DNA of 64,000 bases from Escherichia coli (GTDB lineage Bacteria > Pseudomonadota > Gammaproteobacteria > Enterobacterales > Enterobacteriaceae), in the NCBI RefSeq assembly GCF_001677475.2, contig NZ_CP015229.1. One strand, given 5' to 3'. Of the stretch, positions 1 to 23,893 are shown piece by piece. The position numbers were made by a program, and so were the translations under genes. Positions within the stretch are counted from its first letter, which is position 1, and each line of letters begins with the position of its first letter. The notes under the pieces were generated by a model. It ran no database searches and was not told the origin of the DNA. It worked only from the letters and a program-made list of their open reading frames with translations.

Positions 1-1022
1 GGAGCCACTGGAGCTGGATGCGGGTTGTTCTGGGTGGTGAGAGCTTCTCTGCTCTGGCTGAAGGCCTGCAGGAAGCCCTCGGACAACTGGGCGGAGTGCC
101 GGTAGAACATAAAACGGACAGCCTGAGGGCAGCATGGAAACAACAGGGCGAAGATGGACGCCGCGAGCTGACTGAGCGTTATGCTACTCTCTGTCAGCAC
201 TACGGAATGCAGGGCGTACACAATAATGCCGGTCGGGGCCACGAAAATGGCTCGGTTGAAAGTGCCCACGGACATCTGAAAAGGCGTATCTGTCAGGCGC
301 TGATACTGCGGGGCAGTAACGACTTCAGCACCATAGAAGAATATCAGGCCTTCATCACTCAGCAGGTTATGCGGCACAACCGTAACAATCAGGATCTGGT
401 CAAGGAAGAACGTCTTCATCTGAAACCGCTGCCGCTTCGTCGCAGTGCTGACTATGATGAGCTGACTGTGAGGGTTAGTCGCAGCAGTACCATCAATGTG
501 AAGCACGTCGTCTACAGCGTACCTTCCCGGCTTGTAGGTCAACTGTTACGGGTCAGGTTATGGGACGATCGTCTGAGCTGTTACGTTGGCAGCAGCGAGG
601 TCATGAGCTGCCCTCGCGTCAGACCAGAAAAAGGGAAGACGCGGGCCCGTCGTATCGACTTCCGACATGTGATCGACAGTCTGGCAAAAAAGCCCGGTGC
701 GTTCTGCCATGCAACGCTGAGAAATGACATCCTGCCGGACGATGAATGGCGGAGGCTGTGGCGTCGCTTATGTAATCATCTGGAGCCCGATATGGCAGGA
801 AGGCTGATGGTACATGCCCTGAAACTGGCTGCAGGATACGACGATATCTCAGTCGTGGCAAAAGGTATGGAGCAGATGCTGAATACCCCGGGAAACGTGG
901 ATCTGCACCGGCTGATGCGCTTCCTGGGTATAAAAGAAAAGGCGTTGCCGGTAGTCAATGTGATACAGCATAACCTGAGCAGTTATGAGCAACTACTGCG
1001 TGGCAAGGGAGGTTCGCAGTGA
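1..1022 (+). CDS. istA: IS21-family transposase IstA (5' partial, open to the window edge)
   Basis: Frame is open from position 1; C-terminal transposase-like region; stop overlaps the istB start (GTGA), the classic IS21 arrangement. Confidence 0.8.
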   Translation, partial: SHWSWMRVVLGGESFSALAEGLQEALGQLGGVPVEHKTDSLRAAWKQQGEDGRRELTERYATLCQHYGMQGVHNNAGRGHENGSVESAHGHLKRRICQALILRGSNDFSTIEEYQAFITQQVMRHNRNNQDLVKEERLHLKPLPLRRSADYDELTVRVSRSSTINVKHVVYSVPSRLVGQLLRVRLWDDRLSCYVGSSEVMSCPRVRPEKGKTRARRIDFRHVIDSLAKKPGAFCHATLRNDILPDDEWRRLWRRLCNHLEPDMAGRLMVHALKLAAGYDDISVVAKGMEQMLNTPGNVDLHRLMRFLGIKEKALPVVNVIQHNLSSYEQLLRGKGGSQ

Positions 1023-1774
1023 GCAATATCCATCACCTTGAACATAGCCTGCGTAAACTACGCCTGACACGAGTTGGAGCTGAATGGCACGCTCTGGAAA
1101 AACGAGCGCTGGCAGAAGGCTGGACACCATCGCGCTATCTTCTGACGCTATGCAATGAAGAACTCCTGTGGCGCGAGAGTGAAAAACTGCGTCGTTATAA
1201 AAAGGAGGCCCGGTTGCCAGTTGCCAAAACGCTGAGCGAATACGACTTCAGTCAGGTGCCGGAACTGAATGGAGCTCAGTTCCGGCAACTCTGTGAAACG
1301 ACAGACTGGGTTGATGCAGGAGAAAACGTTCTGCTGTTCGGAGCCAGCGGGTTGGGGAAAAGCCATCTGGCGGCAGCGATCGTGGATGGCGTAGTAGGTC
1401 AGGGCTACCGGGCCCGGTTCTACAGCGCAGGAGAGCTGTTGCAGGAACTACGTAAAGCCAGAGCTCAGTTGAAACTGAATGAGCTGCTACTGAAACTGGA
1501 TCGCTACCGGGTGATAGTGGTGGATGATCTTGGCTATGTCAAACGCGATAGTGCCGAAACGGGTGTGCTGTTCGAGTTAATAGCGCATCGCTATGAACGT
1601 GGGAGCCTGGTGATAACCAGTAACCATCCGTTCAGCATGTGGGGCAGCATCTTCGTGGATGAGACTATGGCGGTGGCTGCGGCAGACAGGCTGATCCATC
1701 ACGGATATATGTTCGAACTGAAAGGGGAAAGCTACAGGAAAAAGACAGCGAAGGCAGTAACAAGCGCGACTTGA
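1019..1774 (+). CDS. istB: IS21-family helper ATPase IstB
   Basis: 251 aa with Walker A motif GASGLGKSHLAAAI and Walker B-like VIVVDDLGY; GTG start overlapping the istA stop. Confidence 0.85.
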   Translation: MSNIHHLEHSLRKLRLTRVGAEWHALEKRALAEGWTPSRYLLTLCNEELLWRESEKLRRYKKEARLPVAKTLSEYDFSQVPELNGAQFRQLCETTDWVDAGENVLLFGASGLGKSHLAAAIVDGVVGQGYRARFYSAGELLQELRKARAQLKLNELLLKLDRYRVIVVDDLGYVKRDSAETGVLFELIAHRYERGSLVITSNHPFSMWGSIFVDETMAVAAADRLIHHGYMFELKGESYRKKTAKAVTSAT

Positions 1775-1839
1775 TGTCGCCCTGAAGGGTGCGGCCAGTA
1801 TAGTTGGCGCGAGTCGGCAAAACTAGTTGACGTCTAATA

Positions 1840-2375
1840 GTCAAGGGATGATCGTGTGGAACAAGCAAACTATGGTGCCAACGAAACCACGGGAAGGCGA
1901 CGAGCTGCGGGTCATTACTCAAACGCTCGCTGGCGATACCAATATCAGCTTCACCATTTTGCAACAACGTCGCAATTTCCTGTGGCGTCCCCTGGATTAG
2001 CTCGAGCCGAACCTCCGGGAAAAGTTCGCGAAAAGCTTTAATGACCTCTGGCAAGCTATAACGTGCCTGAGTATGCGTCGTTGCAATAGTGAGAACGCCA
2101 GACGTATCGTTGGTAAACAGGTCTGCAAGCCGACGAACATTACTGGCTTCATTCAGAATACGTTCTGCAATGACCAGTAATGCTTTGCCCGGTTCAGTCA
2201 TGCCCAGCAGTCTCTTACCTCGTCGAACAAATATTTCGATGCCAAGTTCATCCTCCAGTTCCCGAATATGACGGCTGACGCCTGACTGTGAGGTAAAAAG
2301 CATATTCGCAACCTCTGTCAGGTTGTAATCCTGACGTGCAGCTTCGCGGATTATCTTTAGTTGTTGGAAATTCAC
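1840..2375 (-). pseudogene. cbl: cbl (LysR-type regulator of sulfonate utilisation) truncated by the IS insertion; first ~179 codons intact
   Basis: N-terminus MNFQQLKIIREAARQDYNLTEVANMLFTSQSGVSRHIRELEDELGIEIFVRRGKRLLGMTEPGK... matches Cbl as I recall it through ...LVPHDHPLT, then reads into IS-derived sequence. Confidence 0.8.
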
Positions 2376-2476
2376 GGTAAACTCCGGGCAGTTCAGATAT
2401 CCCGTTATTGTTAAAGTCTAATGCCCGGCATAACAAATAATAAAAACCCGCATCTTATTCCATCCCGATATAACGC

Positions 2477-3394
2477 TTAGCTCACCAATTGCCACTGCCT
2501 TTTTTCCATCACTGGAGAACTAATCACTGACATTAACAACTCTTTCACTGCTTGCGCCTGTGGTGATAAGTTCGCTCTGGCGGGTAAATTTAATGACAAA
2601 GAGAGACTCATGGAAGGTGTGGTAATGCGTGACATCCACCCGTTTACTGCGCCACATAACGAACGCGCGGCCGATTCGGGTAATACTGCAACGCCCATGC
2701 CGCTGGCAATCGCTGCGGTAAGCGTGGCAATAGACTCAATTTCACCAATGACTTTTGCCGTGAGCCGCCGTAGGGAAAAAGCCTCATCAACACGAAGTCT
2801 AATAGCACTGTAATCACTGGGGAGAAAGAGGTTCATTTGCGCAATAGCATTAACATCAACGCTTTGCCCCGGGCAATCTTGAGTTCCTACCAGGAAAAGA
2901 TCTTCTTTCAGCAAAGCCTGACTGGATACACCAGCCACAGGGGAATGCTCATAAATCACCGCCATATCGAGTTGATGATTTATCAGTTTTTCGTTAAGTA
3001 CTGCACCGCTATTTTCATGAAGATAGATAACGATCTCCGGGAATTCAGCGCGAACCGCCTGTAATAAGGGCATGGTGATGGATGACGCTGCGGTTCCTGG
3101 CGCAAAGCCAATCGAGACTTGCCCCGATAATGCCTGACCAACGTTATGCACCGCCAGTTGGGCCTGCTCACACTGACGTAAAATGGCCCGCGCATGGGTA
3201 TAGAGAATTTTTCCGGCGTCTGTTGGCGTAACGCCCCGTTTTGTGCGAATCAAAAGTTGTTGATTTAACTCACCTTCCAGTGTGGCAACCTGCTGACTGA
3301 GCGCTGGTTGTGCGATATGCAATACTTCAGCAGCCTGGGTCAGGCTACCAATATCTACAATTTTTACGAAGTATTTCAGGCGTCTGAAGTTCAT
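2477..3394 (-). CDS. nac: Nitrogen assimilation control protein Nac (LysR family)
   Basis: MNFRRLKYFVKIVDIGSLTQAAEVLHIAQPALSQQVATLEGELNQQLLIRTKRG...; tracker ORF starts 10 codons earlier, true start taken at MNFRR. Confidence 0.9.
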   Translation of the reverse strand: MNFRRLKYFVKIVDIGSLTQAAEVLHIAQPALSQQVATLEGELNQQLLIRTKRGVTPTDAGKILYTHARAILRQCEQAQLAVHNVGQALSGQVSIGFAPGTAASSITMPLLQAVRAEFPEIVIYLHENSGAVLNEKLINHQLDMAVIYEHSPVAGVSSQALLKEDLFLVGTQDCPGQSVDVNAIAQMNLFLPSDYSAIRLRVDEAFSLRRLTAKVIGEIESIATLTAAIASGMGVAVLPESAARSLCGAVNGWMSRITTPSMSLSLSLNLPARANLSPQAQAVKELLMSVISSPVMEKRQWQLVS

Positions 3395-3450
3395 GTTGCC
3401 TCCGGTGTTTAAGAATCGGCACAAGTGCCGCCATTACTTACAACCAGAGT

Positions 3451-3466
3451 GCAAGATGCTTGCCAG
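3451..3466 (-). promoter_or_regulatory. sigma-54 (-24/-12) promoter of nac
   Basis: Minus strand reads TGGCAAGCATCTTGCA (GG-N10-GC) about 56 bp upstream of the nac start. Confidence 0.6.
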
Positions 3467-3580
3467 TTTTATTTTGGCGTTGATGTACAAGCTAACCAGC
3501 TGTCAAATAAGAGATTATGATAGATTCGTCATTGGCTCCTTTAATCAGCTGTCGCGTTCCCCTGCCCTATAAAAGGAGGG

Positions 3581-3597
3581 TATGCACCACGATGGTT
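3581..3597. promoter_or_regulatory. Putative NtrC binding site upstream of nac
   Basis: TGCACCACGATGGTTCA resembles the NtrC consensus TGCACCA-N3-TGGTGCA. Confidence 0.45.
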
Positions 3598-3720
3598 CAT
3601 TACCCAATAAGATTGAAAGCTCACCACTTTGTTGAAATTGACAGCAAACAAACAAAAAAATGCATTTCACCCTTTGACATCACCATGCACTGCCATTAAT
3701 ATGCGCCCCGTTCACACGAT

Positions 3721-3796
3721 TCCTCTGTAGTTCAGTCGGTAGAACGGCGGACTGTTAATCCGTATGTCACTGGTTCGAGTCCAGTCAGAGGAGCCA
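3721..3796 (+). tRNA. asnV: tRNA-Asn (anticodon GUU)
   Basis: 76-nt sequence TCCTCTGTAGTTCAGTCGGTAGAACGGCGGACTGTTAATCCGTATGTCACTGGTTCGAGTCCAGTCAGAGGAGCCA with cloverleaf and CCA end. Confidence 0.97.
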
Positions 3797-3802
3797 AATT
3801 CA

Positions 3803-3830
3803 AAAAAGCCTGCTTTTAAGCAGGCTTTTT
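3803..3830 (+). terminator. Rho-independent terminator after tRNA-Asn
   Basis: Hairpin AAAGCCTGCTTTTAAGCAGGCTTTTT followed by a T-run. Confidence 0.8.
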
Positions 3831-3851
3831 GCTTTGTAATTACCAACGCTC

Positions 3852-4787
3852 TTAAAACATCTGTCTTGAACCAGAACTAATTTGCACAGGCATTCCCGAT
3901 CGTCGTTGCAACGCAGCATTTGCGCGATTTACATCAACTTCTTGCCCGTTGATAAACGCCCGCAAAGATGGGGTTACCGGCAATGGTACTTTTCGGTCAG
4001 ACTCATATTCTGCACGATTGCGCGACAGCGGCTCATGAACTTCCAGCCACTTTGAACCATCCGGTTCCGTTGTGTATTTCACTGGCTGATCAATAATTTG
4101 AACACGAGTACCTACAGGAACATTATCAAACAGATATTTGATATCGTCATTGCGCAGACGAATACAGCCCTGACTTACCCGGAGCCCAATACCAAAATTG
4201 GCATTGGTACCGTGGATGGCATACAACCTGCCAATATAAATCGCGTACAGCCCCATGGGATTATCGGGACCCGCAGGAACAAATGCGGGCAAACTCTCCC
4301 CTCGTTTCGCATATTCGCGCCGAGTGTTCGGCGTTGGCGTCCAGGTTGGAGCTTCTTGTTTACGTTCAACGGTAGTCACCCAGTTACGCGGGGTTTCTCG
4401 CCCAGCCTGGCCGATACCAATAGGAAAGACTTCCACAGTATTACTGTCTGGCGGGTAGTAATAAAGACGCATCTCAGCGACGTTAACCACAATCCCTTTA
4501 CGAACAGTGGCGGGCAAAATCAGTTGCTGCGGAATGGTGAGTTGTGAGCCAGACTTCGGTAAAAAAACATCAGCGCCCGGATTCGCTTCCAGCATATTAC
4601 TTAACCCTTGCCCGTATTGTGCGGCAAAAGTCTCCAGCGGCTGAGTATTGTGATTAGGAACAGTTACAGTAAGCGACTGCCCCACTAAACGGCTACCCTC
4701 TGGAGGTAATGGATAAGTTACCGCCAGGCTATTTTGGCTGGCAAAAAGCAGAGCAAATGAGCAAAGAATATTTACACGACGCATCAT
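3852..4787 (-). CDS. ldtA: L,D-transpeptidase LdtA (ErfK)
   Basis: 311 aa with signal peptide and YkuD-type L,D-transpeptidase domain, matching ErfK as I recall it. Confidence 0.9.
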
Positions 4788-20048: not shown

Positions 20049-21430
20049 ATAACTCTGAATTAGAAACACTGATCCGCAATATTCTGCGCGAGCAACTTGT
20101 CCCCGCTACACCACGAACGCAAAGAAACGCTATTTTCCAGACTGTTGATGAAGCGGTCTGCGCAGCACACCAGGCCTTTTTACGCTTTCAACAGTGCCCG
20201 CTGAAAACCCGTAGCGCCATTATCAGCGCCATTCGCGAAGAATTAATGCCCCGCCTTACCGAACTGGCAGAAGAAAGCGCCAAAGAAACGGGGATGGGAA
20301 ATAAAGAAGATAAGTACCTAAAAAACAAAGCGGCACTCGATAACACGCCAGGAATTGAAGATTTAACCACCACTGCACTAACCGGTGATGGTGGCATGGT
20401 TTTGTTTGAATACTCCCCGTTTGGGGTTATTGGCTCGGTCACGCCGAGCACCAACCCCACGGAAACCATCATTAACAACAGCATCAGCATGCTGGCAGCA
20501 GGTAATAGCGTCTACTTCAGTCCACACCCGGGAGCCAAATACGTTTCGTTAAAACTGATTACCACAATCGAAGACATCGCGTTTCGCTGTAGTGGCATTC
20601 ATAACCTGATCGTTACCGTATCTGAACCGACCTTTGCTGCTACCGAACAGATGATGGCGCACCCTAAAATCAGCGTTCTGGCGATTACCGGCGGTCCGGG
20701 GATCGTCGCCATGGGAATGAAAAGTGGCAAGAAAGTGATTGGTGCCGGAGCGGGTAACCCTCCGTGTATCGTCGATGAAACGGCGGATATTGTGAAAGCC
20801 GTCGAAGATATCATCAACGGCGCTTCATTTGATTACAACCTGCCGTGTATCGCTGAAAAAAGCCTGATTGTCGTAGCATCAGTGGCAGAGTATTTAATTC
20901 AGCAGATGCAAAGTTTTGGCGCGCTTCTTCTTAACTATGAGCAAACGGAGAAATTGCGTGCAATTTGCCTGCCAGACGGTAGCGCCAACAAAAAACTGGT
21001 TGGGAAAAGCCCATCAGCCTTGCTGGAAGCGGCAGGCCTCCCTTTGCCCGCAAAAGCGCCGCGCCTACTGATTGCTGTTGTCGACGCCAATGATAGTTGG
21101 GTTACTTGTGAACAACTGATGCCAATGCTGCCCATTGTGAAGGTCAACGATTTTGATAGCGCTCTCGCCCTGGCGCTGAAAGTGGAAGACGGCTTGCACC
21201 ACACGGCAATTATGCACTCGCAGAACGTCTCACGGCTCAACCTTGCCGCACGCGTTATGCAAACCTCAATCTTTGTCAAAAACGGCCCCTCCTGGGCGGG
21301 TATTGGCGTCGGCGGCGAAGGCTTTACGACCTTTACCATTGCAACACCGACCGGAGAAGGGACAACGTCAGCACGGACTTTTGCCCGCTCACGACGCTGC
21401 GTGTTAACCAGCGGCTTTTCAATTCGCTAG
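20045..21430 (+). CDS. pduP: CoA-acylating propionaldehyde dehydrogenase
   Basis: 461 aa aldehyde dehydrogenase family with N-terminal encapsulation-peptide-like helix (MNNSELETLIRNILREQL). Confidence 0.95.
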   Translation: MNNSELETLIRNILREQLVPATPRTQRNAIFQTVDEAVCAAHQAFLRFQQCPLKTRSAIISAIREELMPRLTELAEESAKETGMGNKEDKYLKNKAALDNTPGIEDLTTTALTGDGGMVLFEYSPFGVIGSVTPSTNPTETIINNSISMLAAGNSVYFSPHPGAKYVSLKLITTIEDIAFRCSGIHNLIVTVSEPTFAATEQMMAHPKISVLAITGGPGIVAMGMKSGKKVIGAGAGNPPCIVDETADIVKAVEDIINGASFDYNLPCIAEKSLIVVASVAEYLIQQMQSFGALLLNYEQTEKLRAICLPDGSANKKLVGKSPSALLEAAGLPLPAKAPRLLIAVVDANDSWVTCEQLMPMLPIVKVNDFDSALALALKVEDGLHHTAIMHSQNVSRLNLAARVMQTSIFVKNGPSWAGIGVGGEGFTTFTIATPTGEGTTSARTFARSRRCVLTSGFSIR

Positions 21431-22553: not shown

Positions 22554-23893
22554 ACGTCGAGTTAACCTCCTGCGACGACCAGACCATCCGCGAGCGAGTA
22601 CAGGCAGCAGGTGTCGTGGGTGCAGGCGGCGCAGGTTTTCCAACCCATATTAAGCTACAAGCGCGTGTTGACACTTTCCTGGTGAATGCGGCGGAATGCG
22701 AACCAATGTTGAACGTGGATCAACAGTTAATGGCGCAGCAAGCCAGTCGCCTGCTTCGCGGTGTTCACTATGCGATGAAAGCCACCGGGGCCAGTAGCGG
22801 AATCATCGCGCTGAAAGAGAAATATCAACTGGCAATAAACGCACTCACACCACTGTTACCACCGGATATCCGCCTGCATATTTTGCCCGACGTTTACCCC
22901 GCAGGAGACGAAGTGCTGACCATCTGGATGGCAACTGGTCGCCGCGTTCCACCCGCTGCATTACCCGTTAGCGTCGGTGTGGTGGTCAATAATGTTCAAA
23001 CCGTACTTAATATTGCCAGAGCCGTCGAGCAACAGTATCCAGTGACGCGCCGCACACTCACCGTTAATGGTGCAGTGGCGAAACCAATAACGGTAACCGT
23101 CCCCATCGGCATGTCTTTACGTGAAGTCCTGGCGCTGGCGGGCGGCGCAACAGTGGATGCTCCTGGTTTTATCAATGGCGGACCGATGATGGGAAGTTTG
23201 ATCACATCGCTCGACACACCAGTCAGCAAAACCACTGGCGGCTTGCTGGTTTTACCCAACTCTCATTCACTGATCCAACGTCGAATGCAGAATGACCGCA
23301 GCGTACTTGCCGTCGCGAAAACTGTTTGTGAGCAATGCCGCTTGTGTACCGATCTCTGCCCACGTCATTTAATCGGTCACGAACTGGCACCCCATTTGTT
23401 AGTACGTGCGGTTAACTACCAACAGCTCGCTACGCCGCAACTGTTACTGACGGCGCTCACCTGTTCAGAGTGCAACGTCTGCGCCAGCGTCGCCTGTCCG
23501 GTAGGAATTTCACCAATGCGCATAAACCGCCTGCTTAAGCAGGAATTACGCGCACAAAATCTCCGTTACGAAGGTACCTTAAATCCTGCAGATCCCATGG
23601 CAAATTATCGACTGATTCCCGTAAAACGGCTGGTAACCAGACTTGGCTTAACCCCGTGGTATCAGGATGCGCCATTGTCTGAACAGGTGCCTCAGACCGA
23701 AAAAGTGACGTTATTGTTACGCCAGCACATCGGTGCCAGCGCAATTGCGTGTGTACAAAAAGGCGATCGCGTCGTTCATGGGCAATGTGTAGGTCAAATT
23801 CCACACGGCACATTAGGTGCCCCCATTCATGCCAGTATTGATGGCATGGTCAGCGATGTGACAGAAAACGCAATTACGCTTGTGAGAGGTTAA
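22550..23893 (+). CDS. pduS: Cobalamin reductase PduS (RnfC/Nqo1-like Fe-S flavoprotein)
   Basis: 447 aa with two 4Fe-4S Cys clusters ([25 protein letters not shown]). Confidence 0.93.

Follow-up and report, generated by a model that had tools for sequence, protein, structure and literature searches.

Does a nac gene whose neighbor cbl has been cut by an insertion sequence still carry the regulatory region that controls it in Escherichia coli K-12? The question is posed by a 64,000-nucleotide stretch of E. coli DNA (hereafter the window), in which the left end shows the gene order cbl-nac-asnV-ldtA-cobTSU, the enterobacterial arrangement that is also found in K-12. We consider it very probable that positions 3450-3599 are the nac regulatory region as it occurs in K-12, with its cis elements and the Nac protein unchanged and with cbl cut by ISEc10. 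The features on which this view is built are collected in Table 1.

Table 1. Features of the nac-cbl locus and the nac/asnV spacer in the window.
Feature	Position	Strand	Basis or remark
ISEc10, right-hand ~1.84 kb, IS21 family	1-1839	+	99.1-99.9% identity to annotated copies
cbl', codons 1-179 of 316	1840-2375	-	junction 1839|1840 with the ISEc10 right end
nac-cbl spacer, 101 bp	2376-2476	-	terminator scan
nac, LysR-type nitrogen assimilation control protein, 305 aa, intact	2477-3394	-	100% aa identity to K-12
nac leader, inferred, 45 nt	3395-3439	-	TSS placed from the -12 GC
nac -24/-12 sigma-54 promoter CTGGCAAGCATCTTGCA	3450-3466	-	sequence; matches published K-12 site
Candidate Nac autoregulatory operator ATAAGAGATTATGAT	3507-3521		+ strand ATAAG-N6-TGAT; centered at -75
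Block adjoining the NtrC dyad, TACCCTCCTTTTATAGGGCA	3563-3582	-	conserved columns; consensus ACCYCT-TATGGGGCA
NtrC dyad TGCACCACGATGGTTCA, high-affinity type	3583-3599		17 bp; 1 mismatch to TGCACCA-N3-TGGTGCA
asnV promoter, sigma-70, divergent from nac	3674-3702	+	TTGACA-17-TAATAT; 10/12 matches, promoter scan
asnV, tRNA-Asn (GUU)	3721-3796	+	ARAGORN; Rfam tRNA 72.6 bits; K-12 annotation
asnV intrinsic terminator	3803-3830	+	terminator scan

The nac gene and the truncation of cbl

The segment from 1840 to 3860 aligns with E. coli K-12 (NC_000913.3, ~2,060,379-2,062,399) over its full length without a gap and with 37 substitutions. The 22 differences that fall in nac are all synonymous, which indicates continued purifying selection on the gene, and the HTH_1 and LysR_substrate domains of Nac are both complete in Pfam. 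Six further substitutions are intergenic (3407, 3421, 3449, 3478, 3499 and 3534), and none of the six lies within the sigma-54 or NtrC motif described below. The spacer between nac and asnV, 326 bp long, is common to the nac enhancer and to the asnV promoter. The latter is near-consensus, with an A-rich tract upstream at 3650-3660 and a GC-rich discriminator (GCGCCCC) 3' of the -10 hexamer, features that would be typical of tRNA promoters under stringent control. The genes ldtA and cobTSU follow beyond asnV, and an Rfam scan of 1700-4000 returned nothing besides the tRNA.

The remainder of the window (4000-64000) is colinear with E. coli and carries ldtA, cobTSU, the pdu operon, sbcB, plaP, gnd and an O-antigen cluster whose wzx and wzy genes are of the O36 family. 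The propanediol utilization (pdu) operon is complete, and is covered to at least 80% in just 636 of 5,426 complete E. coli genomes. The best identity of this remainder to any genome in that collection is only ~96-98%, which suggests a somewhat divergent lineage of the E. coli group.

The truncation of cbl, which had been claimed from a first reading of the DNA, is plain in the comparison with K-12. Residues 1-179 of Cbl are identical to the K-12 protein, after which the two diverge at the 1839|1840 junction where ISEc10 takes over. The resulting open reading frame (1665-2375, minus strand) encodes a chimera of 236 residues, in which 57 residues derived from the insertion sequence stand in place of residues 180-316 of Cbl. 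Pfam recognizes HTH_1 at residues 3-63 of this chimera, together with LysR_substrate at profile positions 3-95 of 209 only; more than half of the effector domain is lost, and a complete LysR effector-binding domain is thus absent from Cbl'.

The annotated copies of ISEc10 all stop matching the window at 1839-1844. The element contributes a gene pair on the plus strand, convergent with cbl' and nac, consisting of a 5'-truncated istA (to 1022) and istB (1019-1774). In an intact copy, istA has a length of 1500 nt and its start precedes by 478 nt the point corresponding to window position 1, and the left ~0.5-0.65 kb of the element falls beyond the start of the window.

How cbl was lost allows two readings. 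The simpler one is an insertion of ISEc10 into the gene. The other, which we regard as possible but somewhat doubtful, is a deletion or rearrangement mediated by the insertion sequence, in which the 3' half of cbl was lost along with neighbors such as asnU and yeeO. The 3' half of cbl was not found elsewhere in the 64-kb window, where the search returned only tRNA-Asn cross-matches, and the window begins inside ISEc10, with the other junction beyond it. Moreover, a search of 5,426 complete E. coli genomes found the ISEc10::cbl junction in none of them, and a protein look-up gave no record for the exact 236-residue chimera. A simple insertion, however, would leave the 3' half of cbl past the left edge of the window just as well. 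The two readings concern only the manner in which cbl was lost, and a deletion is compatible with our overall explanation of the locus.

The sigma-54 promoter of nac and its NtrC enhancer

The element CTGGCAAGCATCTTGCA upstream of nac agrees in 17 of 17 letters with motif OS19, the experimentally mapped sigma-54 site of K-12 nac, which is tabulated at distance 45 and in the class 'confirmed' (PMC4591121; Bonocora et al., 2015). The original prediction that nac retains its -24/-12 promoter is thereby upheld as regards the element itself, although the start that it gave (3451) is one base off the true start at 3450. In its core form, TGGCAAGCATCTTGCA at 3450-3465 on the minus strand, the element has one mismatch to TGGCAC-N5-TTGCA, and its GG and GC doublets are exactly 10 bp apart, which places them at -25/-24 and -13/-12. 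These positions are counted from a transcription start that we infer at 3439; the leader that would result has the length tabulated for K-12 (PMC4591121), and a Shine-Dalgarno sequence (GGAGG, 3399-3403) stands upstream of the nac ATG at 3394. A promoter scan predicted no sigma-70-type promoter for nac on the minus strand of the spacer.

Occupancy of the element by sigma-54 is known from K-12. The K-12 ChIP-seq peak and motif (PMC4591121) convert to window positions 3457-3460, and the identical promoter sequence is positive there by both sigma-54 ChIP-seq and gSELEX. The K-12 gSELEX peaks of RpoN and NtrC convert to ~3509, within the nac/asnV spacer.

Upstream of the promoter, the NtrC dyad TGCACCACGATGGTTCA is the same in K-12 and is the sole match with at most one mismatch in the 64 kb, where 0.03 would be expected. 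Its center lies at -152 from the inferred start, within the range of ~100-200 bp for enhancers. The upstream NtrC-like site that had been proposed is therefore present as a one-mismatch dyad unique to the window, and scans for the two motifs, which had been suggested as a check, found both of them aligning to the characterized K-12 nac promoter. NtrC occupies this locus in K-12, where 'nac-cbl' is a ChIP-seq target (PMC4066584). The published interval converts to window positions 3380-3460, nearer the promoter than the dyad and ~125-210 bp from it, an offset that we assume to be due to peak resolution or looping. A further NtrC candidate at 3620-3636 (CTCACCACTTTGTTGAA) has four mismatches by eye and is unconserved in the alignment described below, and was dropped.

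How far are these two elements kept outside E. coli? Orthologues of nac were gathered independently of the promoter, with a degenerate DNA pattern for the N-terminal sequence KYFVKIVDIG and one genome per species. The search yielded 120 loci, ~70 of which encode Nac at 54% identity or more, and motifs were counted over the 67 other Enterobacterales loci with a full 400 nt upstream, with shuffles as the null. The sigma-54 motif (at most one mismatch) is present in 44 of the 67 orthologous nac loci, compared with a mean of 0.24 in the shuffles, and the NtrC dyad (at most two mismatches) in 35 of 67, compared with 0; since the species are phylogenetically related these counts are not independent events, but the contrast with the shuffles is still overwhelming. 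The nac leader measures 44-50 nt across the Enterobacteriaceae. In a MAFFT alignment of the nac upstream regions from 18 genera, the conserved blocks are five in number: the NtrC dyad, the block adjoining it, a Nac-like block, the -24/-12 element and the Shine-Dalgarno sequence.

The distances of the dyad from the inferred nac start are discrete, at approximately -131, -142, -150 to -155, -163/-164 and -174. The class at -150 to -155 is the majority and includes the window, while Erwinia and Pantoea have the dyad at -163/-164 and Rahnella at -174. The best period of this spacing is ~11 bp, with a circular resultant length of 0.81.

These comparisons bear on the view that the two motifs are coincidental, the TGGCA...TGCA dyad being a hairpin or terminator-like structure and the upstream palindrome serving the divergent asnV promoter and not nac. 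The sigma-54 pattern is by itself no rarer than chance in the 64-kb window (three matches with at most one mismatch, 2.05 expected). The terminator scan does flag 3451-3463, where a stem of 5 bp precedes a T-rich run on the plus strand; we rejected this hairpin-like candidate, which is no more than the dyad inside the -24/-12 element. Terminator-like matches as a whole are at chance level (2 found, 1.7 expected), and no plus-strand gene ends at 3451-3463. The NtrC dyad, likewise, lies upstream of asnV as well, ~75 bp from its -35 hexamer, yet NtrC binds the nac/asnV spacer in K-12 both in vitro and in vivo. Against coincidence stand also the exact identity of the sequence to a site verified by ChIP-seq in K-12, and the retention of both motifs across genera at a spacing from nac that is fixed and in phase with the helix. 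Conservation and published occupancy together effectively refute this view, to which we give almost no credence. We thus take the -24/-12 element to be real because it is identical to the published ChIP-seq motif, stands in the right position and is conserved in orthologous loci.

The other one-mismatch matches to the sigma-54 pattern are TGGCAGGCAAATTGCA and TGGCGCAGACGTTGCA, at 20959-20974 and 23471-23486 on the minus strand; both probably lie within the pdu region, and their number is at chance level.

Accessory sites in the spacer and a substitution at -10

Between the NtrC dyad and the promoter, the conserved block that adjoins the dyad may represent a second, low-affinity NtrC site. An NtrC enhancer should have at least two adjacent dimer sites for the active oligomer to nucleate, and only this half-site-like block adjoins the dyad. 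It is the right half of the block that looks like an NtrC half-site, reading TAGGGCA here and TGGGGCA in the consensus; the left half is a poor one. The half-site is centered at ~-127, on the promoter side of the dyad center by 25 bp, and 29 of 68 nac loci contain the pattern T[AG]GGGCA compared with 3.0 expected, with a cluster at -126/-127.

The Nac-like block, ATAAGAGATTATGAT, is a candidate operator for Nac itself. Its ATAAG corresponds to the strong half of the Nac motif ATAagnaaaanttAT defined by ChIP-exo in E. coli, and its other end is GAT, as opposed to the TAT of the ATA-N9-TAT consensus. Read on the nac strand, the block appears in the alignment as ATYA-N6-CTTAT, and the form ATNA-N6-CTTAT is found in 42 of 68 nac loci compared with 0.44 expected, in clusters at -75/-76 and -87/-88, and it moves to -87/-88 in those loci in which the NtrC enhancer lies one helical turn farther from the start. 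The strict form of the consensus does occur at 3569-3583, abutting the NtrC dyad; this match was rejected as chance, with 20 such matches in the window against 15.6 expected and an occurrence in 8 of 68 nac loci against 6.9 expected.

Taken as a comparison of sequences, the quantized distances of the dyad and the co-shifting Nac-like block form what reads as a signature of a face-of-helix constraint on a weak enhancer. The phased distances and the co-shift bear out in silico what has been reported in vitro for the nac enhancer of Klebsiella, its dependence on the face of the helix, and introduce no new principle.

Among the species representatives, a genome deposited as E. coli strain SCPM-O-B-8794 encodes a Nac only 97% identical to that of the window and K-12 and has a different NtrC dyad (TGTTCCATTGTGGTGCA); despite its name, this strain may represent an Escherichia species cluster of its own.

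The intergenic substitution closest to a motif is at 3449, the base directly after TTGCA and position -10 of nac, which is C in the window and A in K-12 and in 16 of the 18 aligned genera. We considered whether the promoter might look intact while the nitrogen control of nac has nevertheless been altered, through this A-to-C change, through convergent transcription from ISEc10, or through both. Sigma-54 makes its contact with the fork junction at the -12 element, immediately beside position -10, and C at this position is rare, occurring in 17 of 5,426 E. coli genomes (0.3%). These 17 include the O55:H7 strain DEC5A, however, so that the variant occurs in natural E. coli strains, and RpoN motifs derived genome-wide extend no farther than the A of TGCA, holding no information at -10. 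With respect to transcription from the element, the IS genes on the plus strand do face cbl' and nac on the minus strand, but the end of the insertion sequence is 1.6 kb away from the nac promoter; and the purifying selection indicated by the exclusively synonymous differences in nac also argues against an altered control. We would expect the substitution at 3449 to be neutral, allowing that it could conceivably affect promoter strength, and judge altered control of nac to be improbable. The reading that we favor remains that of a nac regulatory region equivalent to that of K-12.

Regulatory consequences and comparison with known nac promoters

The K-12-like architecture suggests how the locus would operate. 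Upon nitrogen limitation, phosphorylated NtrC (NtrC~P) would bind at -152, to the dyad, with probable assistance from the weak half-site next to it (~-127/-132), and would loop to the closed complex of sigma-54 RNA polymerase at the -24/-12 element (3450-3466), driving open complex formation. Transcription from ~3439 would then yield Nac. Nac acts on sigma-70 promoters. It would probably also feed back on its own expression, repressing the nac promoter through the ATAAG-N6-TGAT block at -75, between enhancer and promoter.

A terminator scan of the spacer predicted no intrinsic terminator between nac and cbl, a result consistent with co-transcription of the two genes. Transcription that continues past nac would read through into cbl and make cbl expression responsive to nitrogen; in the window, where istA and istB converge on cbl' and nac, such read-through would be antisense to istB. 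For K-12 the literature points in the same direction, and bears out the original placement of cbl in the NtrC regulon: 'nac-cbl' is a ChIP-seq target of NtrC (PMC4066584), cbl is among the regulators up-regulated by NtrC (PMC9853098), and cbl expression responds to nitrogen limitation (PMC11748552).

In the window this branch would end in a damaged gene. With cbl cut after codon 179, the locus is predicted to supply no functional Cbl. The protein is reportedly required for expression of ssu and tau, as found by van der Ploeg and colleagues. Together with CysB, Cbl is a main regulator of the response to sulfur limitation (PMC11748552). Since ISEc10 has cut cbl, the Cbl-dependent expression of genes for scavenging sulfur from sulfonates and taurine is expected to be lost. 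It is thus a reasonable inference, in agreement with the original prediction, that nitrogen control is intact and sulfonate control lost; glnG, glnL, rpoN, ssu and tau lie beyond the window, and what we say about nitrogen and sulfur control is drawn from the nac-cbl locus. The predicted phenotype, a failure to obtain sulfur from taurine or alkanesulfonates, would be a small metabolic streamlining. On this view the lineage retains the step from NtrC to Nac in its response to nitrogen stress, beside a cbl inactivated by an insertion sequence, which matters little beyond annotation.

A more elaborate consequence can be imagined, in which nitrogen-induced read-through from nac runs antisense into istB and istA and couples the IS21-family transposase to nitrogen, with an effector-blind Cbl' acting on operators of the Cbl/CysB type. 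If this were true, the transcript would encode the chimeric Cbl', with its HTH, half an effector domain and 57 IS-derived residues. We think it very unlikely, and prefer the plain loss of a cbl gene downstream of an otherwise normal nac.

Set against known systems, the locus has few surprises: the nac promoter is well characterized and already known, and the loss of cbl is a routine pseudogene generated by an insertion sequence. Like the IS-pseudogenized regulators of E. coli and Shigella-type genomes, it shows an insertion sequence, here ISEc10 of the IS21 family, interrupting a non-essential LysR regulator and leaving a chimeric open reading frame; what sets it apart is its junction, which none of the 5,426 complete E. 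coli genomes searched shares. The closest counterpart is the K-12 nac promoter itself (nacp; Muse and Bender, 1998; OS19), with which it shares the -24/-12 element, the NtrC dyad, their spacing, the 45-nt leader and the Nac protein. The K-12 locus also has the same flanking genes, cbl, asnV, ldtA and cobTSU, and differs from the window in the six intergenic positions, one of them at -10, and in an uncut cbl.

The locus also resembles what has been described for Klebsiella. The nac promoter of Klebsiella aerogenes, in the 1995 work of Feng, Goss, Bender and Ninfa, is reportedly a weak sigma-54 promoter with an enhancer near -153. That enhancer is said to combine one high-affinity NtrC site with an adjacent low-affinity one and to depend on the face of the helix, and a Nac operator is said to lie between enhancer and promoter. 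The block adjoining the dyad and the Nac-like block of the window (3563-3582 and 3507-3521) fit this architecture, and in K. oxytoca the nac orthologue shows the sigma-54 motif together with a leader of 47 nt and the dyad at -151. Unlike Klebsiella nac, the window has the E. coli-type dyad, with TGAACC in one half, and its weak half-site reads TAGGGCA and not TGGGGCA.

Among other promoters of the NtrC regulon, glnAp2 and glnK of E. coli use the same activator, sigma factor and looping, with the dyad consensus GCaCcaaaAtgGtGC. The difference from glnAp2 lies in the enhancer: glnAp2 carries a pair of strong NtrC sites and responds already at low NtrC~P, whereas nac has one strong site. The nac promoter is said, from the work of Atkinson and colleagues in 2002, to fire only on starvation.
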